64,000 bases of DNA from Nitrosopumilus sp. (GTDB lineage Archaea; Thermoproteota; Nitrososphaeria; Nitrososphaerales; Nitrosopumilaceae): the NCBI GenBank assembly GCA_965223425.1, contig OZ245003.1, positions 1,664,001 to 1,728,000 on the forward strand, written 5' to 3'. Shown here piece by piece: positions 17,121-57,396 of this stretch (the stretch's first letter is position 1; every line of letters starts with the position of its first letter). A program made the position numbers and the translations under genes. The notes under the pieces were generated by a model. It was not told the origin of the DNA. It worked only from the letters and a program-made list of their open reading frames with translations, and did not search any database.

Positions 17121-17512
17121 AATTGGCACTGATATCAATATTTTTTATCTCATTTTTGTCAGCAGTATATGCGGTATTTCTAGACGGAATGATGGAGGAA
17201 TACGGGGTTTTTGTGGCCCTGGGAATTTACGGCGCGGCCTTTGCGGCTGATTTTCTTTCCACCATATTCGCGCAGGACGCACAAAAGAGGGAAAAGAATC
17301 CCATCGCAAGATACATGTCAAAATTTGTCGGGTTTCGCACGTCACTTGTCCTGGTCGGGGCAGTCGGTCTCTCAATACAGATTGTGGCGTATCTTGTGAC
17401 AGGCAACATGATAGTCACATACCTTATGGCGGTACTGCACGCATATGCCGCCTTTTCAAATCTGTGGCATCAAAAATCCGCCTCAAATACAAAACATGTT
17501 GAAACATTGTGA
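17117..17512 (+). CDS. Membrane protein (DUF5658-like)
   Basis: Several TM segments; 'ADFLST...EKNPIA' motif. Confidence 0.5.
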   Translation: MKLALISIFFISFLSAVYAVFLDGMMEEYGVFVALGIYGAAFAADFLSTIFAQDAQKREKNPIARYMSKFVGFRTSLVLVGAVGLSIQIVAYLVTGNMIVTYLMAVLHAYAAFSNLWHQKSASNTKHVETL

Positions 17513-18018
17513 ACATGAACAAGATAAAAATTGTAAATGTCGTGGCAAAGGCGGTGATTGCGGGCCATGACAACAACACAATACTAAAGACCGTAAGAAA
17601 TGCAGAATACCGCCCGAACAATTTTCCCGCGATCGGAATAAAGACTGCAAAGGCAAAGATATGGCTGTACAATTCCGGGAAGGTGACATCGACTGGGACA
17701 AATTCCATGGATGAGGCACTTGTCAGCATAACTGACTTTGTGCATGAGATGGCGAGGCTTGGCATGTCAATCAAGATGATATCAGAGCCGAGGGTCGTGC
17801 TGGTCGTGGCCAACGTCTTTGTCTCAAAGAAGCTTGACATCATAAAGATGCGGCACATGGTAAAGTCGTCGCAGCCGAGGTTTACGTCGCGTACCGTGCA
17901 GTTTGGCGACGGAAAACATGCAAGAATCTATGACAACAACGCCGTGATTGCCAGTGCGTCCTCCATAGACGGGATCATTGAGATCGTAAAGAAGCTTGAA
18001 AAATACCAGATGGAATGA
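17509..18018 (+). CDS. tbp: TATA-box binding protein homologue (divergent)
   Basis: 'IKIVNVVA', 'AEYRPNNFPAI', 'LYNSGKVTSTGT' match TBP repeat 1; repeat 2 is degenerate. Confidence 0.8.
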   Translation: MNMNKIKIVNVVAKAVIAGHDNNTILKTVRNAEYRPNNFPAIGIKTAKAKIWLYNSGKVTSTGTNSMDEALVSITDFVHEMARLGMSIKMISEPRVVLVVANVFVSKKLDIIKMRHMVKSSQPRFTSRTVQFGDGKHARIYDNNAVIASASSIDGIIEIVKKLEKYQME

Positions 18019-27891: not shown

Positions 27892-28170
27892 CTAGAGAAA
27901 GTCCGGGTCGTCATCATCTGTCGGAATCTCCGACTTTTGGCCGCCTGTGTGATTGTTGTCTCTTTCTGTTTTTATTTTGTCATTTATTTCCGCAATCACA
28001 TCCAGGTCAAGGCGCTTTAGGATCATCTCTGCATTTTCTACAAGAAACCGGACATCGTTTAAAATGCCGTCAATCTTTCTCCTGGTCCTTAATTTCTGAA
28101 GCCTTAGTCTTCCAGGCGAAAAAGAGTCAGGTGAGACAATCGCCCGCTTTTGTTTGTCAGTTAGTGCCAT
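27892..28170 (-). CDS. Small protein coupled to ParM-like gene (candidate ParR-like adaptor)
   Basis: ATG at 28170 overlaps the end of the actin gene; basic N-terminus, acidic tail. Confidence 0.45.
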   Translation of the reverse strand: MALTDKQKRAIVSPDSFSPGRLRLQKLRTRRKIDGILNDVRFLVENAEMILKRLDLDVIAEINDKIKTERDNNHTGGQKSEIPTDDDDPDFL

Positions 28171-29015
28171 TTCTGCGCCTTTGTAAGCATCCCAAGCGCA
28201 TTTGAAAATACTGGGTCCCTTGCTATCTGGCACTTGTCGCGTATTGCCTCATTTTTTATCTCAGAGACAAGCTTTGGTATCAGTGCCCCGCCTCCGGCCA
28301 GAATCACAGGAAGTTCCGGAAAGTCAATGACTGTCTTTGTCAGGGAATCAGATATAGAGTCTGCAAGAAGCTTTCTGTACTGTGAGAGCTCCGGAGTGTC
28401 CTTTGCAAACAGGCTCTTCTCCTTGACGTATCCGGTCTTTGTGTCAGTTATTGCAGAGGTGATGTCTCCGACTCCGTGATCCAGTGTCAGGCCTGAGGCT
28501 ATCTTGCCATTGACTACTGCCATTATCTCAGTGGTTCCATGTCCGATGTGGCACACAATACCGTCCTCCAATCCCTGGTGGATGAGGGTGGCCCTTGCCT
28601 GGTATATGAGCCCAAAGAACTTTGGTCCAAGCGCCTTCATTACTGCCTCGCGAATCTTTTTGCTGTGGTCCCTTGCAGCATATGGGACTCCTGCAACGAT
28701 GACCATTTGTGCATACCTGCCAACGGCAGATGTCCTGGGGGTTCCGAGGATCTGGTCCATTGAGTATTTTATCAGGCTGATATAGTCCTCCATTATTGTT
28801 GGAATCCCGCGATATACGGGCCTCTTTAGTGTCATTGTTTTTATGGTTTCATATTTTGCAGCATCGTATCCGATGTGTGTCGTATCCTTGTTGTTTGACT
28901 CTAGCTCCAGGTGCCTGCCAGTGGCAATTAGTGACGGGAACTTTGTCAATCTGGTCGATGTTGCAATCTTTACAAAGCCGGTTCCAATGTCGAGTCCGGC
29001 AACATATTCACTCAT
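28161..29015 (-). CDS. ParM/StbA-like actin-fold ATPase
   Basis: Phosphate-1 'GLDIGTGFVK', phosphate-2 'HIGHGTTE', adenosine 'LAGGGA', 'SNALG'. Confidence 0.8.
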   Translation of the reverse strand: MSEYVAGLDIGTGFVKIATSTRLTKFPSLIATGRHLELESNNKDTTHIGYDAAKYETIKTMTLKRPVYRGIPTIMEDYISLIKYSMDQILGTPRTSAVGRYAQMVIVAGVPYAARDHSKKIREAVMKALGPKFFGLIYQARATLIHQGLEDGIVCHIGHGTTEIMAVVNGKIASGLTLDHGVGDITSAITDTKTGYVKEKSLFAKDTPELSQYRKLLADSISDSLTKTVIDFPELPVILAGGGALIPKLVSEIKNEAIRDKCQIARDPVFSNALGMLTKAQKWH

Positions 29016-32714: not shown

Positions 32715-32868
32715 TATTGTTCTCTTTCACATACCATCCCCCCCCTTTTTTTCTAATCAAATTTTTTGTACGGACATCTGATTATTTTTTCGTGACCTGG
32801 CATGTCATCCCAAATCTTGCACCAGTATGTTCAAACATACCTGACAGGCAGGCAAGTGTGGGGATGAT

Positions 32869-32954
32869 GGTGAGTTTACCTAGCAAGGTAAGGTGTCCGA
32901 CTGATAATCGGAATGTCTGTCAGGACAGCGTGGGTTCGAATCCCACACTCACCG
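32869..32954 (+). tRNA. tRNA with GAU (Ile) anticodon on a class II, Ser-like body
   Basis: Acceptor GGTGAGT/ACTCACC + G73; D ACCT/AGGT; AC TCCGA-CTGATAA-TCGGA; long V-arm TGTCT/GGACA; T GTGGG-TTCGAAT-CCCAC. Confidence 0.88.
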
Positions 32955-33009
32955 TAATACTCCTGCATATTAAAACATTCAGGAGAGAAATTCAAAAAAG
33001 TGAACAAAA

Positions 33010-33393
33010 ATGGGAATGTATGATGAGGTCGTAGCGGCCATAACATGTCCCTGCTGCAAGAGAAGGTATCTGGATTATGGAATCCAAACAAAGAACTTTC
33101 GGTGCGTACTCTCCAAAATATTTGAAAATGACGACACGAGGAATATTGTGGAGGAAAGGAAATCGTTTGGAAACATAAGGAACGAGACGTTCAAATGTTT
33201 TACATTCTGTGTAATGTGTTCTGCGGGAATCAATATGACAGGAGTCATATCAGAATATGTGTTTCGTGGAGTCAAGGCGGACTCGTTTAATGAGAATATA
33301 AAAAGGTCCGGAACAGATGGAATTGCAATTGATCCCTCCATCATGACAGAAAATGGAAACCATGCAGCAGAAAACGGACTGCTAAAACCCTGA
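33010..33393 (+). CDS. Zinc-finger hypothetical protein (MGMYD...CPCC...QTK family)
   Basis: Two CxxC-type pairs; duplicated at 34146..34529. Confidence 0.65.
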   Translation: MGMYDEVVAAITCPCCKRRYLDYGIQTKNFRCVLSKIFENDDTRNIVEERKSFGNIRNETFKCFTFCVMCSAGINMTGVISEYVFRGVKADSFNENIKRSGTDGIAIDPSIMTENGNHAAENGLLKP

Positions 33394-33673
33394 TTATTTT
33401 TTCGTGACCTGGCATGTCATCCCAAATCTTGCACCAGTATGTTCAAACATACCTGACAGGCAGGCAAGTGTGGGGATGATGGTGAGTTTACCTAGCAAGG
33501 CCGGAACAGATGGAATTGCAATTGATCCCTCCATCATGACAGAAAATGGAAACCATGCAGCAGAAAACGGACTGCTAAAACCCTGATTATTTTTTCGTGA
33601 CCTGGCATGTCATCCCAAATCTTGCACCAGTATGTTCAAACATACCTGACAGGCAGGCAAGTGTGGGGATGAT

Positions 33674-33828
33674 GGTGAGTTTACCTAGCAAGGTGTCGCC
33701 CCGATGAGACGATTGCTTCTGAATTAACATCGCTGGTTCAAATCCCGCACTAACCTCCATTAGTTGTTTCGTTCAGTGTGCGAGCGTCTTAGAAGTGGAC
33801 ATCGTGGGTTCAAATCCCACACTCACCG
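33674..33828 (+). pseudogene. Degenerate GAU tRNA followed by a second tRNA 3' half
   Basis: Shortened D arm, mismatched stems, ends ACTAACC-TCCA at 33759; then a second T-arm + ACTCACCG ending 33828. Confidence 0.6.
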
Positions 33829-34002
33829 TTACAACCCTCAATATTAGACCATTAATGAGGTAAATTCAAAAGTGAAAACCATGCAGCAGAAAACGGACTG
33901 CTAAAACCCTGATTATTTTTTCGTGACCTGGCATGTCATCCCAAATCTTGCACCAGTATGTTCAAACATACCTGACAGGCAGGCAAGTGTGGGGATGATA
34001 AT

Positions 34003-34090
34003 GGTGAGTTTATCTAGTAAGGTAAGATGTCGCCCTGATGAGGCGATTGCTTCTGACGGAGCATCGTGGGTTCAAATCCCACACTCACCG
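34003..34090 (+). tRNA. Second intact GAU-anticodon, long-variable-arm tRNA
   Basis: D ATCT/AGAT; AC TCGCC-CTGATGA-GGCGA; V-arm TGCTTC/GGAGCA; G73; compensatory changes relative to the 32869 copy. Confidence 0.88.
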
Positions 34091-34145: not shown

Positions 34146-34529
34146 ATGGGAATGTATGATGAGGTCGTAGCGACCATAACATGTCCCTGCTGCAAGAGAA
34201 GGTATCTGGATTATGGAATCCAAACAAAGAACTTTCGGTGCGTACTCTCCAAAATATTTGAAAATGACGACACGAGGAATATTGTGGAGGAGAGGAAATC
34301 GTTTGGAAACATAAGGAACGAGACGTTCAAATGTTTTACATTCTGTGTAATGTGTTCTGCGGGAATCAATATGACAGGAGTCATATCAGAATATGTGTTT
34401 CGTGGAGTCAAGGCGGACTCGTTTAATGAGAATATAAAAAGGCCCGGAACAGATGGAATTGCAATTGATCCCTCCATCATGACAGAAAATGGAAACCATG
34501 CAGCAGAAAACGGACTGCTAAAACCCTGA
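34146..34529 (+). CDS. Duplicate of 33010..33393
   Basis: Differs at 2 residues. Confidence 0.65.
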   Translation: MGMYDEVVATITCPCCKRRYLDYGIQTKNFRCVLSKIFENDDTRNIVEERKSFGNIRNETFKCFTFCVMCSAGINMTGVISEYVFRGVKADSFNENIKRPGTDGIAIDPSIMTENGNHAAENGLLKP

Positions 34530-35383: not shown

Positions 35384-35538
35384 GGTGAGTTTACCTAGCA
35401 AGGTGTCGCCCCGATGAGACGATTGCTTCTGAATTAACATCGCTGGTTCAAATCCCGCACTAACCTCCATTAGTTGTTTCGTTCAGTGTGCGAGCGTCTT
35501 AGAAGTGGACATCGTGGGTTCAAATCCCACACTCACCG
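35384..35538 (+). pseudogene. Copy of the degenerate tRNA/half-tRNA unit
   Basis: Same sequence as 33674..33828. Confidence 0.6.
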
Positions 35539-38609: not shown

Positions 38610-38939
38610 CACACGGCAGTTCTCACACATTCATTTTTTATCTGACCTGGCAATCCTTCCAAACCCCGTATCAGATGAGCAATCATCCTGACAGGCAGAC
38701 GGGTGTGGGAAAGGCGCGGTGTTTGAGACACCAGTTTTTTACTCAGAAAAATTTCACAAATAGCAAGAGTGCACAGTGCACACAATTTTGTCATGCAAGT
38801 GATGATCAAATACATTCATCTGAATGAAAAACATCTACGGAATTTTTTCCGTCAAAAACAAAAAACACCGTCTGGGACATGTTCCCGGAAAAAAACCAAA
38901 GAATGTTCTTTGGAATAATCAACAAAGGAGGTTGATAAA

Positions 38940-39365
38940 ATGAGCAAACAAGAAATAGAAAAACAAGAAAATACAAAGCATGAGAAAGTATCAGACTTTG
39001 AGGAAACTGGGCCAGACGAAGTATGTAAATTCTGTATGGAGAGACATCGGATGGGAGTATCAGACTTTGAGGAAAGCTGGGCCAGAGTGGACAAATTCAA
39101 AGAAAAGTTCGAAAGGGTGTTTCTTATAAAAATCTTTAAAGGCACACCAATAAGACCCGAAGAGGGCGCAGAGAGAGTTAATTTCGGGTATGATGTTGCA
39201 GTGGCATGTGCCAATGATGCAAAAATAAAAGAGATCGACAGACTGATTCTCGAAATGAGATTCCTAATTGAGAACTCTGAATTGCCAGGACATTTTCAAA
39301 GAGGGGTACGCAATGCACTTGATGAGTGCATAGACAGTCTGCCAAAAGTGCAGAGTTGTTTCTAA
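38940..39365 (+). CDS. Hypothetical protein
   Basis: ATG directly after the RBS element. Confidence 0.6.
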   Translation: MSKQEIEKQENTKHEKVSDFEETGPDEVCKFCMERHRMGVSDFEESWARVDKFKEKFERVFLIKIFKGTPIRPEEGAERVNFGYDVAVACANDAKIKEIDRLILEMRFLIENSELPGHFQRGVRNALDECIDSLPKVQSCF

Positions 39366-39574
39366 TGAAAAACATGCAAAATACATTCCGTAATAACATG
39401 TTTCTGTCTGTGCCACTTGCAGTGGGATTCACGACTCTCGGCCTTGGATACATCCCGCCACACTCAGAGATGCTCATCAACATTGGTTCGGCCTTTATTA
39501 TTGTGTCTGGTATAGAATCAACACGGCAAATGATTTCAGATGCAATGAAGGTAAGACGTGATAGGAAAAGATGA
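39365..39574 (+). CDS. Small membrane protein, paralogue of 63450..63824
   Basis: Shared 'LG.G..PPHSEM.I..G.AFII' motif. Confidence 0.5.
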   Translation: MKNMQNTFRNNMFLSVPLAVGFTTLGLGYIPPHSEMLINIGSAFIIVSGIESTRQMISDAMKVRRDRKR

Positions 39575-39797
39575 GCAAGAGACAGTCTCAAATGAAATGG
39601 AACCTATCCAAAAACAAAACCACTCAGAGATGATGAGTGTCACAAATAGCACAATCACCACGCCGGATAAGAATCTAGCATGGTAGCGCGCACCATCTAC
39701 TTTGACCAAAAGTTTGGGCGAAGTTGCGCCTGAATCAAATGACTGCTGGGAAACTTCCCGGACAATATTATACCAATCAACAAAGGAGGTTGATAAA

Positions 39798-40247
39798 ATG
39801 AGCAAACAAGAAATAGAAAAAGAGACAATAAGAAAGGTGCTCCACTACAGGTCACAAATGGAAGATGACGCAGACATGTGTTTGGGCACCAGCGACTCTT
39901 ACATGGAAAGCCTCGTAGACGACATCTTAGAGGCAATTCCCACAAACAACTACGAGCTTACCAGGCCCAGGCACTGTCCTGACTGCAAAAAGATTGTAAA
40001 GACCTACTGGGAACTGCTTTTCTGTGACAAAAATCCCAAAGGTGAAAATACTGTTGCAATGGGGGAAAGGCACGGAAACGTAAAGGACGGCACAATTAGA
40101 TGCGAGGACGGCTATTGCAATCCGCAGGAGTCGATCTGTGAGCCCTCAGAAATAAATCAGGTGTACGTTGATACCCACTCTGTCAACCAGAGATGTATGG
40201 AGTGCGACCAGTTCCTTGTTGTCAATTGGCGGATTGCCCCGCAATAA
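39798..40247 (+). CDS. Zinc-binding hypothetical protein
   Basis: ATG after the RBS element; CPDC, CMEC. Confidence 0.6.
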   Translation: MSKQEIEKETIRKVLHYRSQMEDDADMCLGTSDSYMESLVDDILEAIPTNNYELTRPRHCPDCKKIVKTYWELLFCDKNPKGENTVAMGERHGNVKDGTIRCEDGYCNPQESICEPSEINQVYVDTHSVNQRCMECDQFLVVNWRIAPQ

Positions 40248-40772
40248 CGTATTCTGTCAACCGGAGATGCAAGGAGTGCAACCGGTTCCTTTGAGTTCCA
40301 AAGAGAGAAATTCCATACCAGAAGACCTTCCTGAATTTCCGGAATTCACAGACATGCCGGAACCCGCCCCACTGCTCACCAAGAGCTGGGAGGACTTTTG
40401 GGAGTATGCAAGGGAGATAACGCAGAAAAAATGGAAGAGAGACCCTTCCAGAGAGGAGATCATAGGAATCTTTGAGTCGTGCAATGATATGGACTGTGAA
40501 AACGGCACCTACTGGAGTACGGTAAGCGAGGCAGTTCGCAGGTACTATGAGTAAGAACATGCCGGGTACGGATTCCTCGATTAATGCGCAGTCCATGACA
40601 CGCAGGCAGGAGGACGGACAATGAAGAATACGGCAAAAATCAAAAAGGAAATTCATGTTCTGCTTGATTTGATTGACAGCCTGGAGGATCCGTCATTGAC
40701 CAACATGAGACGGCACTATCTTATGTCACTTGCAATAAGACAGCATTCCAGGATGGGGAGGCTGATGAAAAA

Positions 40773-41243
40773 ATGAGTCCAAAAACCGCACCGGAAAACA
40801 ATGCCGGAAAATATACGTCAGCAATGAGCACTGCGTCTAAAATTGGCGCTTTGTACCGGCACCGCACATCATCAGAGTCTTCCAAGAACGATCCGTCCGC
40901 AAGGAGGTACGTGCTGAAAGTGTTCTCTAAAAAAGACATCCGGACGGCGCTGAGGACGGCAGAAATCCTAACAGACGGGGAGCTCATGTGGAGTATCGTG
41001 GAGAGCGGGACTGACGCAAATAATGGCAGTCCGAACATACCGTGGAGTGATGTCAAAAACATGACGGAACGGAAGCATGAGGATGTCAAGGACTTTGAGG
41101 AACTGGACATTGAAGAAAAAATCAAAATACTGGAGAAGGGAGCAAAGATACTGTTCTCAAAAAAAGAGATAGATCGCACATTTGAGATAATTGCGAGAAT
41201 TGCGGATCTGAAAATTTCAGGCCCAGTCAACAAAGGAGGTTGA
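40773..41243 (+). CDS. Hypothetical protein
   Basis: 156 aa, SD-like GGAGG upstream. Confidence 0.5.
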   Translation: MSPKTAPENNAGKYTSAMSTASKIGALYRHRTSSESSKNDPSARRYVLKVFSKKDIRTALRTAEILTDGELMWSIVESGTDANNGSPNIPWSDVKNMTERKHEDVKDFEELDIEEKIKILEKGAKILFSKKEIDRTFEIIARIADLKISGPVNKGG

Positions 41244-41248
41244 TAACT

Positions 41249-42037
41249 ATGGGAGAAGAAACACACACGCGACTTTCCGGCTCTGGGGAGTCCGGAACAA
41301 CAAGCATTCCAAAATACAATACAAGAACAGAAACCGTCATCCATGAGATGCTGGTGGAAAACACCGGCCGTATCCTGTGCGATTCCGGCGATGCCTATGG
41401 AAGATCATATCAGAAAAACCGGAAGGTGGGCGACTTTAGAAGGATACCCGACGTATTCCCGTCGCAGTATGCAGAAGGCGAGTTTGAAATGTGCAGGAGC
41501 CTGTTTGCATTTCTCAGCGACCAGCTGCACTATGACGAATCCATGAATGCGGAGTTTGAGAAATTCGACAGGAAGACCGACCCTGAAAACAAAATGGCAT
41601 GGCTTGAACTCGCAGAGGCGTTTGCAGAAAAAATGCAGGATGATGACGATATTGGAACAGTCAACACATACAACGAAGAGACATCCGCGCTTTCTGAAAT
41701 CATCCAGTACTGCACGTTCAGGAACGACGATGGAGAATACGTCATCCTTCAGATACACGGAGGCTGTGACGCACGCTACGGCTACACAAAACCGAGGGTC
41801 TTCTCAATCAATGAGATGGGCGGCCATGACGTCTTTGCCAGCAACATGAGAAGCATTGACGGCAGCTGTGAGTGTTGCGAATCCCGCACGTTTGACGGCG
41901 GACTGGAATGGGAAACGACGGCCAATGACGGCCAACATGTCGATGAGTCATTTCCAAGCGCATGGAATGCCGTCCTTTCACGCGACGGAAACTTTGTGGA
42001 ATGTGCCAGATGCCACAGCAGGGTTTCATTTTACTGA
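41249..42037 (+). CDS. Conserved MGE/phage hypothetical protein
   Basis: 'MLVENTG..LCDSGDAYGR', 'VNTYN', 'LQIHGGCDARYGYT.P.VF'; C-terminal Cys pairs. Confidence 0.65.
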   Translation: MGEETHTRLSGSGESGTTSIPKYNTRTETVIHEMLVENTGRILCDSGDAYGRSYQKNRKVGDFRRIPDVFPSQYAEGEFEMCRSLFAFLSDQLHYDESMNAEFEKFDRKTDPENKMAWLELAEAFAEKMQDDDDIGTVNTYNEETSALSEIIQYCTFRNDDGEYVILQIHGGCDARYGYTKPRVFSINEMGGHDVFASNMRSIDGSCECCESRTFDGGLEWETTANDGQHVDESFPSAWNAVLSRDGNFVECARCHSRVSFY

Positions 42038-42205
42038 CTGTGATGAAATTCAAAGAGGCAGTCGGCAAACTCCGTGATCAGTTGCGCAAGGCACTGTACA
42101 TGTCAGAGCAAATAGAGAAAAATGACTTTCCCGAACATGACACAATAGGTGTTACGGGAAAAAGGCACAAAGTCCGTGCCAGAATTCACAAAAAGAGGTG
42201 ATACT

Positions 42206-42628
42206 ATGGGACAAAAAACATATCCAAGACTTCCGGGCTATGACAAGCTCAGGAAGATAAGCAACAAAATACACTCTGTCCGCAAGGACGGGGAATACGA
42301 GCAGATAAGCCGGGCATATGACGAGATATTCTTTGATGAGAGTCCGAGCAGTACAAACCTTATCTCTGCTGCCGAACTGCTCCCATACTTCAAGAGTGAA
42401 AGGTATGCATACGGCAGCTTTCACATCCAGGCAGATAGGCTACAAGCACTTGCAATAAAGATGCAAAATTTCATCTGGAACAACCAGACTGACGTGCCAA
42501 AACTGAGAGAAGGCCTGAATGTGGCAGTCAAGGAGATAGACGATATGATAGAATACATCAAGGGCGAGTACCGCAAAAAGACAGGCAAGATCCGCAACAA
42601 CTGCAAGACATGCCCTGCAATGCCATAG
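42206..42628 (+). CDS. Hypothetical protein
   Basis: ATG after GAGGTGA. Confidence 0.55.
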   Translation: MGQKTYPRLPGYDKLRKISNKIHSVRKDGEYEQISRAYDEIFFDESPSSTNLISAAELLPYFKSERYAYGSFHIQADRLQALAIKMQNFIWNNQTDVPKLREGLNVAVKEIDDMIEYIKGEYRKKTGKIRNNCKTCPAMP

Positions 42629-42657
42629 AAAACTATTCCATTGGTGGTGAACAATTC

Positions 42658-43056
42658 ATGAATAACGTAGAATATGAAGTAAATGCGGAATACAGACTAG
42701 ATGAGTTCAGGAAGGCCTTTGAAAAATTTGTAAAAAACCCAAAGGTGTGCGGTACGGTGGATGAATTTCACGGATATGAAGAGTCGTTTTGTGGGCTCTG
42801 GGTGTCCGGCGAGGAAGGCAATGAAATGGGCGACGGAAAGCCTGCGTTTTGCTACGGCGCGCCAGACAGGTGGAGCACCATTTGTTTGAAAGGGAATGAA
42901 ATGGGCGACGGAAAGCCCGCGCTTTCCCACTCTGTGGACTTTCTTTACGAGTTTGGCATACACAAGGACATGCGTTCCTGGCTTGAGAAGCAGGGGTTCT
43001 ATGCACAATGGTTCGACGGCGGCACTGTAATGATATACGGCAGGGACGCACTGTGA
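42658..43056 (+). CDS. Hypothetical protein, paralogue of 60587..61057
   Basis: Shared 'TVDEF...G..VSGE.GN...AF.Y...W.D.GTV'. Confidence 0.6.
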   Translation: MNNVEYEVNAEYRLDEFRKAFEKFVKNPKVCGTVDEFHGYEESFCGLWVSGEEGNEMGDGKPAFCYGAPDRWSTICLKGNEMGDGKPALSHSVDFLYEFGIHKDMRSWLEKQGFYAQWFDGGTVMIYGRDAL

Positions 43057-43090
43057 TGGCAATCGTACCTTTCAGGGAGCGGTGTAAACA

Positions 43091-43710
43091 TTGACGTGTC
43101 CTGCCTGTAAACAGAACATGCTCAAGGCGGACACGTGCCTCTTCAAATACGAGGAGCTGAACGGCAAGTTATACGAAAGAACATGCGAGCCTGATAACGA
43201 AAGATGCGGCGACTGCGGCATACTGAAGAAAAGCGGCAGCGCACATCACCCGGGCTGTGACAAGGAATACTGTCCTGTATGCAGAATGCAGGCAATGGGA
43301 TGCGACTGCAAGAACGGTCCCATGTATGTGGAAAGACCGGACGGCGTGGAGGTTGTAAACCAATGAGCGGCCACGATGCGCCACCGGTAAAAAACTACTG
43401 CAGTGATTATGACACCATGTTTGTGGCAGAAGGTGTGGAGTGGATGGTGCGCACCAATGAGACGGAGCTTGGAGGATACATCCAGGTTGACCGTGTCCGC
43501 AATGATGTGGACGGCAGAAAATACACCTGCGAGGACGGGTTTTTCTGCTCCGGTGAGGAGGCCTACAACATTGCAAAAGATGCCGGACACGATGAGTATG
43601 ACTCCTGGGACGAAAAAAGGATATTTGACTGTCTTGATAGTTCCGGTGTTCTTGAGGGTTGTTGCGACCTTCCATTACTCATGTGGGCACAATGCAGCCT
43701 CACAGCCTGA
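43091..43710 (+). CDS. Two small overlapping ORFs (Cys-rich 43091..43366; hypothetical 43363..43710)
   Basis: 'RCGDCG....HHPGCD.E.CP.C' Zn motif; ATGA coupling. Confidence 0.5.
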
Positions 43711-44143
43711 AAGTTCGGAGGTTCCTGGCAGCTGATTACTGCCTGCGTTATTGCGGCATGAATCATCTCATGTAAGAAAGGTGGAAAAAATATGACAGTT
43801 CCAAAACAGATCAAGGAACCAAAGTCATTTTCCAAAACATGGATAAAAAACCCGAGAGCGCAGATGCGCAAACTTGTATCACAAATTGAGGAGGTGCATA
43901 TATGATGTTCATGACAGACAGGATTGCAAGGGGACTGCATGAAAGATTCAATGAGCAGATATGTATTCTGAAGGAAATTTCATCGACTCAGAAGGAGATT
44001 TCATCAACTCTCAAAAGCATAGATGGAAAAATCAAATAGCATCAATAACCAAAACCGCAGCATCGGCTGCCATGGAAATAGCTTATTTCCAGAACGCGAC
44101 ACAACCTGTTGCGACAACAAAGTCAACAAAGGAGGTTGATAGT

Positions 44144-44401
44144 ATGAGCCAGACAGAAGAAAATATTTGCGACCCAGAAAACTGCACCGACGGAGAAACA
44201 CATGAATTTGATTCAAAACTCTCCGTGGCAGTCTACAACAAAGAACCAGAAAACAAAAACCAGATAGAATTTTCCGATGACTATTCGGAAATAAACACGA
44301 TAGGACAGGTACTTGAAAAAAGATACACGTGTCTTAAATGTGGAAGGAAGATTCATGAGAGATTCAGATACGAGTCGTCGCGCTTTGCAGACGATGACTA
44401 G
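44144..44401 (+). CDS. Small Zn-ribbon-like protein
   Basis: ATG after the RBS element; CLKCG. Confidence 0.55.
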   Translation: MSQTEENICDPENCTDGETHEFDSKLSVAVYNKEPENKNQIEFSDDYSEINTIGQVLEKRYTCLKCGRKIHERFRYESSRFADDD

Positions 44402-44452
44402 AACAGCTTATTCCGATTTGGAATGAATTCAAAAACCAAGGGAGGTAACAAA

Positions 44453-45292
44453 ATGGCGCAAGAACAAATACAGAAGGAACGGACGACAATAATTGTAATG
44501 AATGGCGGCCAGGTCAAGTCATTTAGGAAAGCAGTACAGCTGATTAATAATCAGGTTGGCGGCGAACTGACTTTCAGAATAAGGGACGGATTTATCCATT
44601 TACAAAAAATGGATCCCGGCCATGTCTGCATGGTCGACTTTAGGTTCCGTCCATCACACATTCATGAAAGTCACAAGCAGTTTGGAATACATTCAAACGA
44701 CCTGTACCAGATAACCAGACACCTGAGGAATGATTCCGAGGTGGAAATGGCAATCAAAGATAAAACCATGACCATCTTTGTATATGACGGAAGCTTCGGT
44801 ATGGATGAGGCGGTGGAAATAGCCATCAAAGATGAAACCATGACCATCCCCGCATTTGATAAAGTGTCAAAAAGACACGTACTAAAAGTCAGTGAGGGCG
44901 ACATATGTGACTGCTTCCTGCCGTGTGTAAAGTACACACACCGGATAAACATGGCAAAAGAGCATGTCGGGGAGATAACATCAAAGCTGAAACAGTTTGA
45001 TTTTATGAAAATCAGAATTGAAGACCAGAACGTCACGTACGCGGCAAAAAACAGCATCAGGGATGTAAAATTGGAACTGTGTCACGAGATCGGGGAGTGT
45101 AATGGAATTATGGATTCAGAGTATGACATGAAATTCCTGCCACAGGCATTTAAAATTTGCACGCAGATCAGCGAGTGTGAGTTGTACATTGCCAGTGAAA
45201 GTCCGCTCAAACTTGCAGTCAAAAACGATGATCTGAGCATCGATTATTACCTGGCCCCACGGATTAAAGATTCGGGCAGTGCAACGGAATAA
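44453..45292 (+). CDS. pcn: PCNA (DNA sliding clamp) homologue, divergent
   Basis: 'LQKMDPGHVCMVDF', 'SEYDMKFL', 'SPLKL...IDYYLAPRI'. Confidence 0.8.
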   Translation: MAQEQIQKERTTIIVMNGGQVKSFRKAVQLINNQVGGELTFRIRDGFIHLQKMDPGHVCMVDFRFRPSHIHESHKQFGIHSNDLYQITRHLRNDSEVEMAIKDKTMTIFVYDGSFGMDEAVEIAIKDETMTIPAFDKVSKRHVLKVSEGDICDCFLPCVKYTHRINMAKEHVGEITSKLKQFDFMKIRIEDQNVTYAAKNSIRDVKLELCHEIGECNGIMDSEYDMKFLPQAFKICTQISECELYIASESPLKLAVKNDDLSIDYYLAPRIKDSGSATE

Positions 45293-45294
45293 AA

Positions 45295-47583
45295 ATGGAC
45301 AAACAAAAAATCTACAAGCCGACACTAATCTCTGAGAACGCACTGGATATTCCGAATCCCGGATATGCCGGCAAGATGCCCGATGGCACGCAGGACGGCT
45401 TTATCTCAACCAAGATAGAGGAGGACGTAACAATCCAGAGGATATCCCACGATCTGTACAAGCATGCGTCATCGGGATTCCGCGAACTGTTTGTCAATGA
45501 GGCAAGATTCTGCAGACATGCGCGCGACTGCCATGACGCAGACCCGGTCATAAACGTGAAAATAGGCAAGAACCGCGAGCTGATAATCGAGGGCCGTGAC
45601 TCCATGGGGATGTCATGGGAGACATTCAGCAACGTGTATACGGTACTTGGCAGGTCCACCAACTTTGACGGCCAGACGCCGGGACAGTTCGGCTTTGGCC
45701 GGGCGGCATACACATGTCTCTCCGAAATCATGATAATGGAGGTCCACTCGCGCGAGACCGGCGAAAAGTTTGCCGTGATGGGCAAAAACGGAGTGGGGTG
45801 GCAGACCGGACTTCCGACACCGGAAGACATGGACTTTTTCGGATGCAGAATAACCATGACATTGTACGATGACGTAGATATCAGGTCAATCATCAGAATG
45901 ATGAAAAACTGCTGCAAACTGAGCGGCGTCCGGGCCACGCTGGACACAAGGGACGCACTGGACATCATCGATTTTGGCTACGGGGATGACCAAAGTGCAT
46001 ACCGCGCATACGAACCAGGAACTCTTGAAGGCATGTATAACAAGTTGATTGATACTGAACGCTGCGATCACGTGCTAGACATCTCTGCCGAAGAAGGCGG
46101 AATAGAGATGATGATCGGATACCAAGTGCAAACATGGTCAGAGGAGAGGGGTCCTAAGCGTAGAATGATACACACGTATACTGAAAATAACGAATGCTAT
46201 CTTGCAGGCGTTCCAATTGGGGAGCTGAAAATCGACAGTAATGTGCATTCTCTGCTGGGTTCTGCAAATACAATTCTGGTCAACATCAAAGACGAGCGCA
46301 CGTACAGTCCCACCCCCGACAGGGAGAGGCTAAAGGACGATGCGGAGAAAAGGATATGCGACATAGTGGAGAACAGGATATGGTGCGAGATTAGGGACCG
46401 CTTTTCCGGCATCAAAACAGTCGATGACTATGTCAATCATCCCAACAGGGAATTCATTGACGGGGTTTTCAACAGCAGAGACGACCATTGGTCATTTATG
46501 ACTGAAAACCACATGGAACTGGGAAGGGCCATGGCAGTCACCCTAGTTGATGAAAACAAACGGCACATAAATCTTGAATACATCGCACCCGGCCGGAAGG
46601 AGCTGCTGATCACGGACAAAATGAGCAGGTCAAAGGTATCTGCTGCCAAAGAGTTCAGTCAGGCAGTGAAGGTGGTCAGGCCCCTTGATTATGAAAACAC
46701 CCATTCACTCTTTGAGAACCTGGGGGTGCGCACCCTTGATGACTATATCGCCAGCAACGGCATAACTGTCAAAATGATTGAGAGTGACGATGTACCGGAG
46801 CCGTTTGTAATCCATGAGACACATTATGGTTACTGGAATTCAGAAAACCATAATGTATTGTTCAAAAAATCAACCAGAAACACGACTGACTGCGACATGC
46901 CGGACAACGTCATCATAGCAAAGAAAAACTTTGGAATGCTGTGTGATTTGCTGAGAACAGTTGAAACAGAATACCGTGTAACAAAGTACAAAAAAACGGC
47001 AAAGGGCGGACTGCGTGAGGAAGAGTTCTTTGAGCGTGTGAGAAAATCGGCATATGCCACAAATGACGGGCCAATGGGCATAGATGACATATCCGAGACG
47101 GATAAAAAAATCGTCATGGTACCATACGAGCGTGAATCGCTTGCAAAATACATGCAGTCCGACAAGATTCTATACGTTGTCGGCAGCGATGACAAGCTCT
47201 TTGAGATGTCTGCGCATCTAAAGATGCACAAGAGGGAATTCCACATATCAGACACGAAATATAGATTCAGGGATTATAATAAAGAGATCATGTTTCCTGA
47301 GGAATATTTCAAACTGATAAAAGGGTATATTGCTCATGTCGATTCTTTCTCAGACCAGATCAAGATATGCTCGGCATACATACATGGATACCGCGCGATC
47401 AAAAACGAGGACGCAAGAAAGATGTTTCTGGGATTCGTGCTAGGTACAAAACACAACCATGACATCCGATACCCCGATGTATCACAAATGCTGGAAAGGG
47501 CGTTTCACATCGATGAGTCGCTGGAAAAGAAAACAAAGGAAAATGGACAAACAAAAAATCTACAAGCCGACACTAATCTCTGA
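45295..47583 (+). CDS. GHKL/HSP90-like ATPase domain protein (rIIA-like architecture)
   Basis: 'RELFVN', 'GRDSMGMS', 'LGRSTN', 'GQFGFG' Bergerat motifs; 'PTPDRERL'. Confidence 0.7.
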   Translation: MDKQKIYKPTLISENALDIPNPGYAGKMPDGTQDGFISTKIEEDVTIQRISHDLYKHASSGFRELFVNEARFCRHARDCHDADPVINVKIGKNRELIIEGRDSMGMSWETFSNVYTVLGRSTNFDGQTPGQFGFGRAAYTCLSEIMIMEVHSRETGEKFAVMGKNGVGWQTGLPTPEDMDFFGCRITMTLYDDVDIRSIIRMMKNCCKLSGVRATLDTRDALDIIDFGYGDDQSAYRAYEPGTLEGMYNKLIDTERCDHVLDISAEEGGIEMMIGYQVQTWSEERGPKRRMIHTYTENNECYLAGVPIGELKIDSNVHSLLGSANTILVNIKDERTYSPTPDRERLKDDAEKRICDIVENRIWCEIRDRFSGIKTVDDYVNHPNREFIDGVFNSRDDHWSFMTENHMELGRAMAVTLVDENKRHINLEYIAPGRKELLITDKMSRSKVSAAKEFSQAVKVVRPLDYENTHSLFENLGVRTLDDYIASNGITVKMIESDDVPEPFVIHETHYGYWNSENHNVLFKKSTRNTTDCDMPDNVIIAKKNFGMLCDLLRTVETEYRVTKYKKTAKGGLREEEFFERVRKSAYATNDGPMGIDDISETDKKIVMVPYERESLAKYMQSDKILYVVGSDDKLFEMSAHLKMHKREFHISDTKYRFRDYNKEIMFPEEYFKLIKGYIAHVDSFSDQIKICSAYIHGYRAIKNEDARKMFLGFVLGTKHNHDIRYPDVSQMLERAFHIDESLEKKTKENGQTKNLQADTNL

Positions 47584-49819
47584 GAACGCACTGGATATTC
47601 CGAATCCCGGATATGCCGGCAAGATGCCCGATGGCACGCAGGACGGCTTTATCTCAACCAAGATAGAGGAGGACGTAACAATCCAGAGGATATCCCACGA
47701 TCTGTACAAGCATGCGTCATCGGGATTCCGCGAACTGTTTGTCAATGAGGCAAGATTCTGCAGACATGCGCGCGACTGCCATGACGCAGACCCGGTCATA
47801 AACGTGAAAATAGGCAAGAACCGCGAGCTGATAATCGAGGGCCGTGACTCCATGGGGATGTCATGGGAGACATTCAGCAACGTGTATACGGTACTTGGCA
47901 GGTCCACCAACTTTGACGGCCAGACGCCGGGACAGTTCGGCTTTGGCCGGGCGGCATACACATGTCTCTCCGAAATCATGATAATGGAGGTCCACTCGCG
48001 CGAGACCGGCGAAAAGTTTGCCGTGATGGGCAAAAACGGAGTGGGGTGGCAGACCGGACTTCCGACACCGGAAGACATGGACTTTTTCGGATGCAGAATA
48101 ACCATGACATTGTACGATGACGTAGATATCAGGTCAATCATCAGAATGATGAAAAACTGCTGCAAACTGAGCGGCGTCCGGGCCACGCTGGACATAAGGG
48201 ACGCACTGGACATCACCGGTTTCAGCATCCATGAGCACGAAAGAAAGTACCTCACATACAAACCGGGAACTCTTGAAGGCATGTATTACGCGTCGACTTA
48301 CTGTGACGACGGCGAGCACCTGCTAAACATCTCTGCCGAAGAAGGCGGAATAGAGATGATGATCGGATACAAAACGAAAGAACGGTCAGAAGGAAGAGGC
48401 CCTAAACGCAGAAGTGTGTCCTCGTATATTGAAAATAACGAATGCTATCTTGCAGGCGTTCCAATTGACGAGCTGAAAATCGACAGTAATGTGCATTCTC
48501 TGCTGGGTTCTGCAAATACAATTCTGGTCAACATCAAAGACGAGCGCACGTACAGTCCCACCCCCGACAGGGAGAGGCTAAAGGACGATGCGGAGAAAAG
48601 GATATGCGACATAGTGGAGAACGCGATAGGGTGCGAGATTAGGGACCGCTTTTCCGGCATCAAAACAGTCAATGACTATGTCAACCATCCCGACAGGAAA
48701 TTCATTGACGGGATTTGCAACAACGAACTCAACTTTCGGTCAATTCTGACTGAGAACCTCATGGAACTGGGAAGGGTCCTGGCAGTCACCCTAGTTGATG
48801 AAAACAAACGGCACATAAATCTTGAAGACATCGCACCCGGCCGGAAGGAGCTGCTGATCACGGACAAAATGAGCAGGTCAAAGATATCTGCCGCCAAAGA
48901 GTTCAGTCCGGCAGTGAAGGTGGTCAGGCCCCTTGATTATGAAAACACCCGTTCACTCTTTGAGAACCTGGGGGTGCGCACCCTTGATGACTATATCGCC
49001 AGCAACGGCATAACTGTCAAAATGATTGAGAGTGACGATGCCGTGCGGCCGTTTGTAATCCATGAGACGTCCCACAGCGACGCGGACATTGGATGCGGCA
49101 GTGAGCAGTTCAGAAAAACAACCACAAACACGACTGACTGCGACATGCCGGACAACGTCATCATAGCAAATAAAAACTTTGGAATGCTGTGTGATTTGCT
49201 GCGGACATTCGACACCAAATACCGCGTAACAAAGTATAGAAAAACGGCAAAGGGCGGACTGCGTGAGGAAGAGTTCCTTGAGCGTGTGAGAAAATCGACA
49301 TATGCCACAAATGACGGGCCAATGGGCATAGATGACATATCCGAGACGGATAAAAAAATCGTCATGGTACCGTACGACAGGGAATCGCTTGCAAAATACA
49401 TTCCATCCGAGGAGATACTGTACGTTGTAGGCACCTACGACAAGCTCTTTGAGGTGTCGGCCCATCTGAATGTGAATGGGAGGAAATTTCACGTGTCAAT
49501 CATAAGATGCGGCTATGGCCTTAGGAGTGAGTCAACCATGTTCCCTGAGAAACACATCAAACTGATGGAGGAATGTCTGGTTTACGACACGGAATGGCGC
49601 GACCAGATCAAGATATGTTTGGCGTACATAGACGGCCACCACACGATCAAAAACGACAACATAAAAAAGATGTTTCTGGGATTCGTGTCAGGTTCAAAAC
49701 ACAACTACAACATACGATACCCCGATGTATCACAAATGCTGGAAAGGGCGCTTTGCATCGACGAAGAACTGCAGAACCAAACAAAGGAAAATGGCACACA
49801 CGTCACTGGCAATACTTGA
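47543..49819 (+). CDS. Tandem paralogue of the GHKL ATPase protein
   Basis: ATG 47543; ATPase domain essentially identical, later blocks divergent. Confidence 0.7.
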   Translation: MDKQKIYKPTLISENALDIPNPGYAGKMPDGTQDGFISTKIEEDVTIQRISHDLYKHASSGFRELFVNEARFCRHARDCHDADPVINVKIGKNRELIIEGRDSMGMSWETFSNVYTVLGRSTNFDGQTPGQFGFGRAAYTCLSEIMIMEVHSRETGEKFAVMGKNGVGWQTGLPTPEDMDFFGCRITMTLYDDVDIRSIIRMMKNCCKLSGVRATLDIRDALDITGFSIHEHERKYLTYKPGTLEGMYYASTYCDDGEHLLNISAEEGGIEMMIGYKTKERSEGRGPKRRSVSSYIENNECYLAGVPIDELKIDSNVHSLLGSANTILVNIKDERTYSPTPDRERLKDDAEKRICDIVENAIGCEIRDRFSGIKTVNDYVNHPDRKFIDGICNNELNFRSILTENLMELGRVLAVTLVDENKRHINLEDIAPGRKELLITDKMSRSKISAAKEFSPAVKVVRPLDYENTRSLFENLGVRTLDDYIASNGITVKMIESDDAVRPFVIHETSHSDADIGCGSEQFRKTTTNTTDCDMPDNVIIANKNFGMLCDLLRTFDTKYRVTKYRKTAKGGLREEEFLERVRKSTYATNDGPMGIDDISETDKKIVMVPYDRESLAKYIPSEEILYVVGTYDKLFEVSAHLNVNGRKFHVSIIRCGYGLRSESTMFPEKHIKLMEECLVYDTEWRDQIKICLAYIDGHHTIKNDNIKKMFLGFVSGSKHNYNIRYPDVSQMLERALCIDEELQNQTKENGTHVTGNT

Positions 49820-50570
49820 AGAGCGCCATAATCTGCTGATCATCCAGACCGGCAGCGGGAAGGTGGCAACAGTTCCAAGGTCGGAGTATATAGTCCTCAA
49901 GTTCAAGCACTACAACGGCAACAGGATATTTTACGACTTTGGCAAGGCAGTAGGAGAAGAAGAATGCAGTACTGCAAGAATAGCGGAGACATACGATGAC
50001 GGCATCTTTAACTGCTGGTACAAAAAACAGCACGTTCAGATATCTGACACAAAGTCCATAGCTCATGCAATCATGACAAAAAACAGGGACGAGTATGTCG
50101 ACATATTTGCGCGCTGGTACGGAATCCGGCAGCAGAAAGAGACAATTGACATGATTATCCGAAACTACACGGATCGTGTCAGCAATGTCAGCTCTGATAT
50201 GTATGTGATAGACGGCGTGTTTGCAGTTGGCTCAAGTGCTGCAGATTATTATTCAAAAAATCCAGCTGATATGTATGTGATAGACGGCGTGTTTGCAGTT
50301 GACAGTCACGGTGTCTCACATTACATGGAGGACAACAGGTGGAATTCCCTGTGTCTTGTTGCAAATTCGATCAGGGAGCCAAAAAATATCGAACTGCCGG
50401 GCATCGGACTTGTCGCGTTAAACGAGATAACGCAGACAATACTTGCAAAAATACTGTTTCTGCTGTACCCGAAAGAGGACACCGTGTTTTTGAACCAGAT
50501 CCCGCAGCACCTGAAGGATCATGTCAGAAAGACAATGGAGCAGAACAAAAAAACAGAGACTACTGCATGA
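49791..50570 (+). CDS. Hypothetical protein coupled to GHKL gene
   Basis: ATG 49791 overlaps the upstream gene; internal DMYVIDGVFAV duplication. Confidence 0.55.
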   Translation: MAHTSLAILEERHNLLIIQTGSGKVATVPRSEYIVLKFKHYNGNRIFYDFGKAVGEEECSTARIAETYDDGIFNCWYKKQHVQISDTKSIAHAIMTKNRDEYVDIFARWYGIRQQKETIDMIIRNYTDRVSNVSSDMYVIDGVFAVGSSAADYYSKNPADMYVIDGVFAVDSHGVSHYMEDNRWNSLCLVANSIREPKNIELPGIGLVALNEITQTILAKILFLLYPKEDTVFLNQIPQHLKDHVRKTMEQNKKTETTA

Positions 50571-50749
50571 GAGATGCAGTGTATAAGGCCAATACTGGCA
50601 CGGCCATCACATTCACGGCAGAAGCGCGTGATGGGGCCGTTGCCATGACGACAGGGATGTCGAATTTAGAAACCAACAAAGGAGGTTGATTGCATGGATA
50701 TGGAAAATGAATATCAAGAAAGACCCGAATGGGACTGGATACAGAGAAA

Positions 50750-51190
50750 ATGAGCAACGTAAACGTCAGGACATCACCGCCCTACGACCGGGCATGTGAG
50801 ATTCTGCAAAAGACAAACGACGGAGAAGAACTGTCAGGCAGTCATCTGAGGCTGGTAGAGATGATGGTCAATGGCAATGACATTACAGAGAAGATGGAGG
50901 TGGAGTTTGAAAAACTCTACGAGAACGTCAGAACTGGATATGTCAAGCCATGGCTGTTTGGAATACGGCACATGACTGCTGACCACGAGGGATACATCTA
51001 CTGGCGCGGCAGACAGGTGGAGCACTACTCCCATGATAGCTATAAGGGGATGCGCCAATCCGCAAAGGACCTGGAAAGAAGGGCCCTTATTCTGGAATCA
51101 AGGGGAATCAAGGTGACTTTTGGATCCCTTTTCATGGAATGGAACAACAAGTCCGGGCCATGTTCCAAACTGACGTGCCATAAGAAATGA
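50750..51190 (+). CDS. Hypothetical protein
   Basis: 'WLFGIRHMTADHEGYIYWRG.QVEHY'; coupled to a 19-aa ORF starting at 50694. Confidence 0.55.
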   Translation: MSNVNVRTSPPYDRACEILQKTNDGEELSGSHLRLVEMMVNGNDITEKMEVEFEKLYENVRTGYVKPWLFGIRHMTADHEGYIYWRGRQVEHYSHDSYKGMRQSAKDLERRALILESRGIKVTFGSLFMEWNNKSGPCSKLTCHKK

Positions 51191-51500
51191 CAAAGTGCAA
51201 AAAATGCAGTGAAGAGTTCAGCTGTGACAACCCACAGATGATCGAGGGCGTAGTCACCGAAAACATGTGTCTGTGTGCCGAATGTGGGACAGACATACTG
51301 AACAGGCAGTACGACATGGGACTGAGCGATACGTCAATGCAAATACTGTGTGATCCGCGTGAAATACTCGGTGATTTATAGATGACAAGCATGATCAGAC
51401 CGCTCAAACAGTCACCGGCAGAAAACACAAATCAGGAAGACGGCACCGTCTTCAACGCGGAAACAATTCCGCAAACAGATCAACAAAGGAGGTTGATAAA

Positions 51501-51767
51501 ATGAGACAGCAAACCAAACTAGAAAAACCAAAAACAAAAACACAGGATCCGGCAAACATCCCGGAAACTGCAAGAAAAATAGCGGCAATAGACCTTCTCG
51601 ACAGGCCGGACAAAGTACACATACAAAGGACGGCAGCTGCAATCGCAGTCAAATACGGAGATCAGGTATACATGGTGACATTACACCACATGGTACCGGA
51701 GACGGCACAGGTGCTGAGAACCAGTGACAATTCAATTGTCGGATTCTCGGCAGTTGCAGGCGGATAA
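51501..51767 (+). CDS. Hypothetical protein, duplicated at 59768..60034
   Basis: ATG after the RBS element; near-identical copy. Confidence 0.6.
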   Translation: MRQQTKLEKPKTKTQDPANIPETARKIAAIDLLDRPDKVHIQRTAAAIAVKYGDQVYMVTLHHMVPETAQVLRTSDNSIVGFSAVAGG

Positions 51768-51779
51768 ACCATCCACAAC

Positions 51780-52990: not shown

Positions 52991-53079
52991 AATGGAACGA
53001 GTTTCAGAAAAAATGACTCGGCAGCCAACGGCATGGAATGACTCCATGCTGCAACAAATCAACAAAGGAGGTTGATAAT

Positions 53080-57360: not shown

Positions 57361-57396
57361 CTTTCTGAAAACAGATCAACAAAGGAGGTTGATAAC

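Follow-up and report, generated by a model that had tools for sequence, protein, structure and literature searches.

Background

Natural tRNAs that place the wrong amino acid at a codon are already known from bacteria and nematodes, and their purpose is an open question to which the archaeal family described here offers a testable answer. In yeast, according to the available text of PMC6125640, tRNA-Ser carrying a GAU or GAA anticodon is lethal, yields Ser substitutions and is rescued by the cognate tRNA, and the toxicity of mistranslating tRNA-Ser variants climbs as the BLOSUM score of the replaced residue to Ser drops; Asp, Pro and Arg anticodons on tRNA-Ser are toxic too, so that toxicity alone does not account for the hydrophobic bias described below. 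In Escherichia coli, allo-tRNA-Ser with Leu anticodons arrested growth and killed the cells (available text of PMC5389517). The nev-tRNAs of nematodes, by contrast, gave no detectable mistranslation in vivo in the experiments covered by the accessible part of PMC4300185, despite being mischarged in vitro; thus, mischarging need not mean mistranslation in the cell. SerRS and AlaRS ignore the anticodon (accessible portions of PMC9976931 for Ser and of PMC10543346); in archaea, Ser identity rests mainly on G73 and the variable arm and more weakly on G30:C40, and G73 also acts as a LeuRS antideterminant (PMC9976931, same portion). The literature searched, mostly open-access main texts and reviews among them, yielded no report of missense tRNAs in archaea that come with an antisense partner.

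Here we analyze a stretch of 64,000 nucleotides (hereafter, the window) from a Nitrosopumilus genome (2.64 Mb, two contigs) that encodes two Ser-type tRNA bodies with an Ile anticodon (Table 1). Comparison of these genes with their relatives leads us to lean, if modestly, towards the view that they encode serylated missense tRNAs that would poison translation, are borne by mobile DNA, and would stay silent until the element moves or its control fails.

Two serine-type tRNAs with an isoleucine anticodon

ARAGORN and Rfam RF00005, run over the whole window, agree on these two tRNA genes and no others (59.6 bits for copy 1 and 56.1 bits for copy 2), in line with the first-pass annotation, according to which two intact tRNAs combine G73 and an extended, paired variable arm with the anticodon GAT (32903-5 and 34037-9). 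Each has the features of a canonical tRNA gene, namely a full 7/5 cloverleaf with a 7-bp acceptor stem, a T loop and covarying stems, along with U33 and a purine at position 37 (A37 in copy 1, G37 in copy 2); the variable regions, of 17 and 19 nt, respectively, contain a paired stem of 5-6 bp. Public contigs give no alternative letters inside either tRNA; copy 2 (33970-34091) is covered with no differences in one run, possibly the source sample itself, and no piece bridges the array. At position 35957, all four runs have one extra base, a probable indel error of the assembly.

The host complement includes a normal tRNA-Ile(GAU) and four tRNA-Ser, to which the window copies are additional. Both copies resemble host tRNA-Ser in position 73 (G), in the D arm (a 4-bp stem and a 9-nt loop) and in the two bases left unpaired between the V stem and the T stem; together with the long paired variable arm of Ser geometry, G73 and the 4-bp D stem give them a body of the archaeal Ser type. 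They are not tRNA-Ile(GAU) proper, because the variable loop of the host tRNA-Ile(GAU) is only 5 nt long and its position 73 is A, nor are they of the archaeal tRNA-Leu or nev-tRNA type, because they lack the A73 and the three unpaired bases after the V stem that are found in host tRNA-Leu, as well as a 3-bp D stem with a long loop. In global alignments, the top canonical host match of both copies is a tRNA-Ser, with a narrow margin in copy 2, and the host tRNA-Ile ranks 15th and 33rd. Among the three options offered in the first-pass annotation, a missense tRNA that inserts Ser at AUC/AUU is thus the best supported, by Ser-type identity features; the likeness to allo-tRNAs, however, does not extend to structure, given that both copies are 7/5 and not 8/4 or 9/3.

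The GGTGAG/CTCACC acceptor pointed out in that annotation is present but differs from that of host tRNA-Ser, all of which have C2:G71 rather than the G2:C71 of the copies. Both copies further depart from host tRNA-Ser in U9 and A10:U25, and the pair 30:40 is G30:C40 in copy 1 and C30:G40 in copy 2. Given these differences at 2:71, 9, 10:25 and, in copy 2, 30:40, serylation may be weak; moreover, the anticodon arm of copy 1 is one base pair away from that of host tRNA-Ile(GAU), so that some charging with Ile is possible. The host encodes a single SerRS, with a bacterial-type N-terminal domain.

Alignment of the two copies reveals compensatory differences in one D-stem pair, three anticodon-stem pairs and the V stem, as previously claimed, and covariation across the family agrees: among 17 close family sequences (including 2 broken copies), 15 of the 26 pairs are altered on both sides, 93.4% of the cells pair compared to 34-46% in slid controls, and the covariation score is reached by none of 500 shuffles. 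Most of the divergence falls in the anticodon stem and the V arm. The two cassettes are nearly identical in the leader (91/94) and downstream (432/435) but share merely 23/39 positions in the tRNA middle. Copy 1 is 86% identical to a GAA-anticodon gene of another genome and copy 2 is 89-90% identical to insertion-sequence-borne GAU genes (L019 and L290), compared to 78% between the twins. Because each copy is closer to a foreign gene than to its twin, within flanks that are 97-99% identical, two old alleles were evidently recombined into one cassette. The copies are indeed diverged and intact, but they did not merely diverge in place, and the compensatory changes between them are older than the cassette duplication.

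Table 1. Coordinates of the tRNA genes and associated features; positions without a prefix refer to the window.
Feature	Coordinates	Strand	Method or remark
Copy 1: Ser-type tRNA body, anticodon GAU	32869..32954	+	ARAGORN, Rfam RF00005, comparison with host tRNAs
Copy 2: Ser-type tRNA body, anticodon GAU	34003..34090	+	ARAGORN, Rfam RF00005, comparison with host tRNAs
Leader element before copy 1	32781..32868	+	Covarying stems and pseudoknot; repeat search
Leader element before copy 2	33912..34002	+	Repeat of copy 1 leader
127-aa Cys-rich ORF after copy 1	33010..33393	+	No Pfam family
127-aa ORF after copy 2, near-identical to the first	34146..34529	+	Sequence comparison
Cassette with an internal deletion that joins the leader and the initial 20 nt of the tRNA to the end of the 127-aa ORF	33390..33582	+	
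Degenerate tRNA copy scoring 24.8 bits, with C33, disrupted pairs and a deletion in the D loop	33674..33756	+	
Remnant of another family tRNA: 3' part with T arm and acceptor strand	33797..33828	+	
Second copy of degenerate tRNA plus 3' remnant	35384..35538	+	
Integrated conjugative element: ATPase (VirB4/TraG-like) and coupling protein (VirD4-like)	12051..16627	+	
Element-encoded TATA-binding protein (TBP) paralogue	17509..18018	+	27% identical to host TBP
Actin-like (ParM-type) protein	28161..29015	-	
Co-oriented small ORFs with repeated strong Shine-Dalgarno leader	38900..64000	+	Including ArdC-N, DUF2958, ParE-like toxin
Ala-body mismatched tRNAs, own genome	C1:129092, 769461, 1454123, 1629481		G3:U70; anticodons Leu GAG, CAG, AAG or Phe GAA
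Ser-body mismatched tRNAs, own genome	C1:1117192, 1573168		Phe GAA
Cluster of ten Ser-body missense tRNAs in genome G456 (7 Phe, 2 Ile, 1 Leu; one degraded)	C2:170000-230000 (L287-L289)		

A family of mismatched tRNAs in archaea

The same genome carries six more mismatched tRNAs, eight in total with the window copies. Among 106 same-genus genomes, a search pattern with NWN anticodons returned 66 rows in 27 genomes; after removal of three false rows (2 genomes), relatives are present in 25 of these genomes, and 61 of the 63 real matches have Ile, Leu or Phe anticodons (by hand count, GAA 34, UAU 9, GAU 8, CAG 5 and UAA 5, in addition to AUC 1 and CUU 1). The 16 NSS anticodons yielded two real matches (Pro and Arg), one false row having been dropped, and a narrow pattern detected Ala bodies with NAN anticodons in 3 of the 106 genomes. 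In Methanoperedenaceae, where 11 of 53 genomes matched, all 12 anticodons are again of the Ile/Leu/Phe class (GAU 6, GAA 4, AAG 2). A strict GAU pattern hit 12 loci in a species-level genome collection, 10 of them tRNA-like (in Nitrosopumilus, five Methanoperedenaceae, two Woesearchaeota and one bacterial record), matched 4 of 401 genomes of the order, one falsely, and had no match in a viral contig collection. The matches L016/L023 and L026 are false and were dropped. A scripted count of the gathered loci gives 88 distinct family genes, 82 of which have Ile, Leu or Phe anticodons, in a set that is enriched by the search patterns used and has NGU, NCA and NCU anticodons outside them. Because related genomes are not independent draws, family counts and p-values overstate the case; the hydrophobic-anticodon bias nevertheless repeats on two bodies (Ser and Ala) and in three archaeal lineages.

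The closest kin of the window copies have GAU, UAU, GAA or CAG anticodons. Anticodons of the homologues thus do vary, yet not freely, staying almost wholly within Ile/Leu/Phe, which suggests that selection acts on the anticodon class and not, as the retention of GAT had been taken to mean, on GAU itself. U33 and a purine at position 37 are kept in 78 of 78 Ser-body family genes; in 4 of 10 Ala-body members, position 33 is C, a change that could damp decoding.

At L021:2983-3153, the 5' part of a Ser/Phe tRNA is fused to the 3' part of a Ser/Ile tRNA, and an Ala/Phe tRNA lies 800 nt away, so that mismatched tRNAs cluster. A metagenome scan, in which 80 of 121 loci were examined and which was swamped by canonical tRNA-Ser(UGA) through a register slip, is not a survey; it contains at least the family-like genes L136-L138 as well as true 8/4 allo-tRNAs. 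Metagenomic long-arm G73 tRNAs with an Asn (GUU) anticodon were also seen (L080, L091, L095, L104, L112, L114, L118, L131, L135, L143, L148, L149 and L152), several of them within phage-like tRNA clusters.

Antisense partners

Many family tRNAs are preceded by a partial tRNA copy on the same strand that, when read from the opposite strand, is antisense to the V arm, D loop or anticodon arm of the tRNA itself. At least 12 contiguous paired bases on the opposite strand upstream are found in 30 of the 88 family genes (31 raw matches less one produced by the broken copy in the window; L275 is marginal) compared to 0 of 65 other tRNAs, and the antisense is followed by a T-run of at least 5 in 24 of the 30, compared to 15 of the 65. 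A TATA-like box about 25 nt before the antisense gene was seen by eye. Isolated mismatches between antisense and tRNA are mostly G-U-compatible (24, against 6 others). Local alignment reached z >=4.3 for 14 of the 25 genes first tested (one from the broken copy in the window) and for 1 of 40 canonical tRNAs, the latter being a tRNA pair. An antisense-like copy of the D and anticodon arms accompanies 3 of the 4 Ala-body genes of the window's own genome by the 12-base test and 4 of 4 by local alignment, and in three further family genes the complement lies on the same strand, within an upstream hairpin. The modules of Methanoperedens are set among varied housekeeping genes without a protein partner, as small selfish modules are. 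Judging from this arrangement, the family tRNA with its antisense gene has the anatomy of an RNA-RNA toxin-antitoxin pair. No antisense was seen at over half of the family genes (about 55 of the 88), and the window copies have neither a cis antisense gene nor a TATA box where one would normally lie.

An antisense gene of its own fits a toxin better than it fits deliberate, non-lethal mistranslation, the first alternative that has to be considered. Under that alternative, Ser would be inserted at AUC/AUU at a low, regulated level for stress tolerance or proteome diversification, or in a burst after conjugative entry that would spoil the new defense proteins of the recipient. The Ser-identity evidence applies to it equally, natural mistranslators have been described in the form of tRNA-ProX (available text of PMC11415595), the window copies head a leading-region-like tract with ArdC-N, and many copies coexist per genome (8 here and 10 in 60 kb of G456). 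The C33 of some Ala-body members, if it damps decoding, would also fit, but the Ser-body genes, with U33 and purine 37 throughout, are undamped, and the anticodons are among the most damaging swaps, the mild ones (Thr, Ala, Gly and Cys) being rare or unseen in the anticodons searched (NGU and NCA lie outside). All considered, we find non-lethal mistranslation improbable.

Mobile-element context

A transposase or integrase gene neighbors 24-26 of 66 family loci (a raw count without a matched control). The nearest kin of the window copies are located between a divergent small gene, which we take from its look to be AbrB-like (a Pfam search gave no match), and an IS6/IS240-like transposase gene. 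Among 30 such insertion sequences, the slot holds no tRNA in 24, a tRNA in 5 and a C/D-box-like RNA in 1-2. Because most of these elements lack a tRNA, the AbrB-like gene appears to be the transposon's own regulator rather than a dedicated antitoxin, a role that we rejected for it, with the tRNA as cargo under the transposase promoter. The G456 tRNAs (Table 1) are spread over 60 kb among restriction-modification, Panacea and MazE genes, in a genome that is 11% contaminated by marker count; most share a promoter motif and a terminator (plain promoters), and no antisense or other visible antidote was found at the ten copies.

C/D-box-like small RNAs occupy the same insertion-sequence slot at C1 near 794050, 2025250, 648350 and 1832600, and also in L328. 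Their best predicted targets are the tRNA-Asp anticodon (two RNAs, with the same guide in L328), C36 of tRNA-Ala(UGC) and a 23S rRNA site, of which only the 23S match beat all 40 shuffles; these RNAs are possible guide-RNA toxins. In L329 and L333, the slot is occupied by another hairpin RNA.

The conjugative element in the window also encodes an MmeI-type restriction enzyme; its oriT was not located in the window, and neither element ends nor att sites were found. The element also contains a CRISPR mini-array (18466-18952), in which a repeat of about 36 nt occurs seven times at a period of 71-74 and each spacer is unique, and an HD-domain gene (26690-27757) has a weak Cas3-HD match. The region 38900..64000 seems to resemble a plasmid leading region, a type of region that is rich in anti-defense genes (available text of PMC13478746). 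About a dozen genes of this region, a PCNA-like gene among them, have TCAACAAAGGAGGTTGA ahead of the start codon.

The array of cassettes runs in the order leader, tRNA and 127-aa ORF; deleted cassette; degenerate tRNA and 3' remnant; leader, tRNA and ORF; second degenerate copy. The leader, a structured element of about 85 nt with covarying stems and a two-class pseudoknot, has 10 matches in the window (32781-38718) and 16 in the whole genome, in front of intact tRNAs, broken copies and ORFs. It forms clusters, ahead of ORFs, in 20 of 106 same-genus genomes (including loci L296-L324), and has no Rfam match; wobble counts did not tell which strand folds. The leading region may use it as a promoter or as a 5' RNA element, and a ribozyme, a riboswitch and a single-strand promoter are candidate roles. 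The TBP paralogue of the element might serve TATA-less leaders.

A leader segment picked post hoc pairs over 11-12 bp with the V arm of copy 1, as in 1-5 of 500 shuffles, and has no such match to copy 2; whole-molecule duplex prediction and cofolding gave no pairing between leader and tRNA. We rejected the leader as an antitoxin because this segment is kept in dozens of tRNA-less leaders, where it builds the pseudoknot; the match to copy 1 is probably a coincidence.

The tRNA is absent from all 28 other leader loci examined, which, along with the three broken or deleted cassettes next to the two intact ones, raises the alternative that the window copies are passengers, captured from the family, silent behind the leader, decaying, and either functionless now or non-translational in role. 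The lack of an antisense gene and of a TATA box at the window copies points the same way, as does the fact that the compensatory changes predate the duplication. Against it stand the two different intact alleles placed in one cassette, neither with any broken pair, and the covariation across the whole family, and no attachment-site repeat involving the window tRNAs was found. This alternative, too, we consider unlikely.

The defense and anti-defense genes in which the surroundings are rich are also compatible with a decoy, as the first-pass annotation had proposed, or with a nuclease-resistant substitute; uncharged or charged with Ile, the tRNAs would protect the element against host anticodon nucleases. 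The near identity of the copy 1 anticodon arm to that of host tRNA-Ile and the focus of divergence on the anticodon stem and V arm would suit such a role. A substitute, however, needs the cognate amino acid, whereas the bodies are of the two kinds, Ser and Ala (G3:U70), with synthetases that are blind to the anticodon; a protective tRNA would have no use for an antisense partner; and the viral collection contained no match to the GAU pattern. The decoy is therefore disfavored, as is the non-translational option of the same annotation, and we regard it as highly unlikely.

Genetic code and codon usage

AUU and AUC together make up 5.4% of host codons. In 271 protein pairs between the host and a same-genus genome, ATT/ATC face Ile in 84% of the columns and Ser in 17 of 5527 (0.3%), and 63 protein pairs with a genome of another family agree. 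In 55 element-region ORFs with homologues, Ser is faced by ATY in 17 of 538 columns, by ATA in 4 of 427 and by Val codons in 11 of 324, and Ile is conserved equally at ATY and ATA. The canonical tRNA-Ile(GAU) is kept in the window's own genome, in 5 of 5 Methanoperedens-type carriers and in 4 of 4 same-genus carriers tested; it was not found in the one 0.6-Mb partial Woesearchaeota genome tested. A changed code in the host or the element (AUC/AUU read as Ser), or an assembly artefact, is largely refuted and scarcely credible: the slight excess of Ser at ATY over ATA and at least one nearby assembly indel error (position 35957) are the only points in its favor, as against standard host columns, a retained tRNA-Ile, Val codons that face Ser as often as ATY does, and near-identical genes in other genomes. 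The AUU+AUC share is 4.3-4.5% in the element, compared to 5.5-7% in core bins, and is similar in other islands; we therefore rejected immunity of the element through avoidance of the target codons, the depletion being weak and not specific to the element.

Proposed mode of action

If the window genes indeed encode serylated missense tRNAs, RNase P and the CCA enzyme would mature the transcript, and the host SerRS, blind to the anticodon, would load it with serine. The seryl-tRNA would then compete with tRNA-Ile(GAU) at AUC/AUU, and serine would enter hydrophobic cores, giving misfolded proteins and a stop of growth. A short antisense RNA, transcribed divergently, would in many family members pair with the V arm, D loop or anticodon arm and neutralize the tRNA; such an RNA-only toxin-antitoxin pair would serve maintenance of the element or abortive defense. 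In the antisense-free subfamily of the window, silence would most likely be transcriptional, given that the kin lie behind an IS6-like transposase promoter that is presumably repressed, and that the window copies follow the repeated leader of the conjugative element. Silencing by the element's own promoters would tie expression to mobilization or to entry into a new cell, and the repeated broken copies fit counter-selection when control slips.

More broadly, archaea may carry a widespread, protein-free class of toxin-antitoxin systems in which a working tRNA serves as the toxin by placing Ser or Ala where hydrophobic residues belong, and the antitoxin is an antisense RNA encoded by a partly duplicated tRNA gene. 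Such tRNAs, and C/D guide RNAs directed at anticodons, would also be carried as anti-translation weapons by insertion sequences and conjugative elements, behind inducible promoters of these elements, and the window copies would have been recruited for expression at transfer. We hold this general proposition to be evenly balanced between true and false. Three features point to mistranslation as a poison: which anticodons are used, the presence of cognate antisense genes and the location in mobile DNA. If correct, the proposition would add a new toxin chemistry to RNA-only toxin-antitoxin systems, explain a class of tRNA genes to which annotation pipelines assign the wrong amino acid, counsel caution against reading such tRNAs as code changes, and provide small natural tRNA/antisense pairs for switchable mistranslation.

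Comparison with known systems

The tRNA-ProX of actinomycetes is served by a dedicated synthetase; the archaeal family appears to rely on the host SerRS or AlaRS. Like the archaeal family, tRNA-ProX species are natural dual-identity mistranslators, but they are bacterial and combine a Pro body with Ala, Asn or Thr anticodons, unlike the Ser and Ala bodies of the archaeal tRNAs (PMC11415595, available text). The nematode nev-tRNAs are long-arm tRNAs of the 7/5 type with an Ile(UAU) or Gly anticodon that are mischarged in vitro; they are Leu-derived, eukaryotic and directed to rare codons, whereas the window copies are of the G73 Ser type, have an anticodon for common codons and lie in mobile DNA (accessible parts of PMC3333845 and PMC4300185). 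The yeast tS-I(GAU) and tS-F(GAA) have the same combinations of body and anticodon and are lethal via Ser misincorporation, but are synthetic and built on a yeast scaffold (PMC6125640, available text).

Bacterial allo-tRNAs, as described in the available text of PMC5389517, share with the archaeal family the Ser or Ala type of body with non-cognate anticodons; they insert Ser, kill E. coli on induction and often occur near toxin-antitoxin genes and transposons, a likeness in setting. They differ in having 8/4 or 9/3 rather than canonical 7/5 structures and in covering 35 codons (Ile UAU, Arg and Asp are the commonest; Phe occurs once), compared to almost only Ile, Leu and Phe in the archaeal family. 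Many members of the archaeal family also have a putative cognate antisense RNA, of a kind that this text does not describe for allo-tRNAs.

Type VIII toxin-antitoxin systems (SdsR-type and CreTA) combine an RNA toxin that hits translation with an RNA antitoxin or transcriptional silencing; the RNA toxins covered by the available text of PMC12737573 block tRNAs or inhibit mRNA targets, and none is a charged miscoding tRNA. No CreTA-like Cascade guide was seen at the present tRNA loci. CreTA is archaeal; the type VIII gene layout, with a cognate antisense gene beside the RNA toxin, is not that of the window copies but is that of the wider family.
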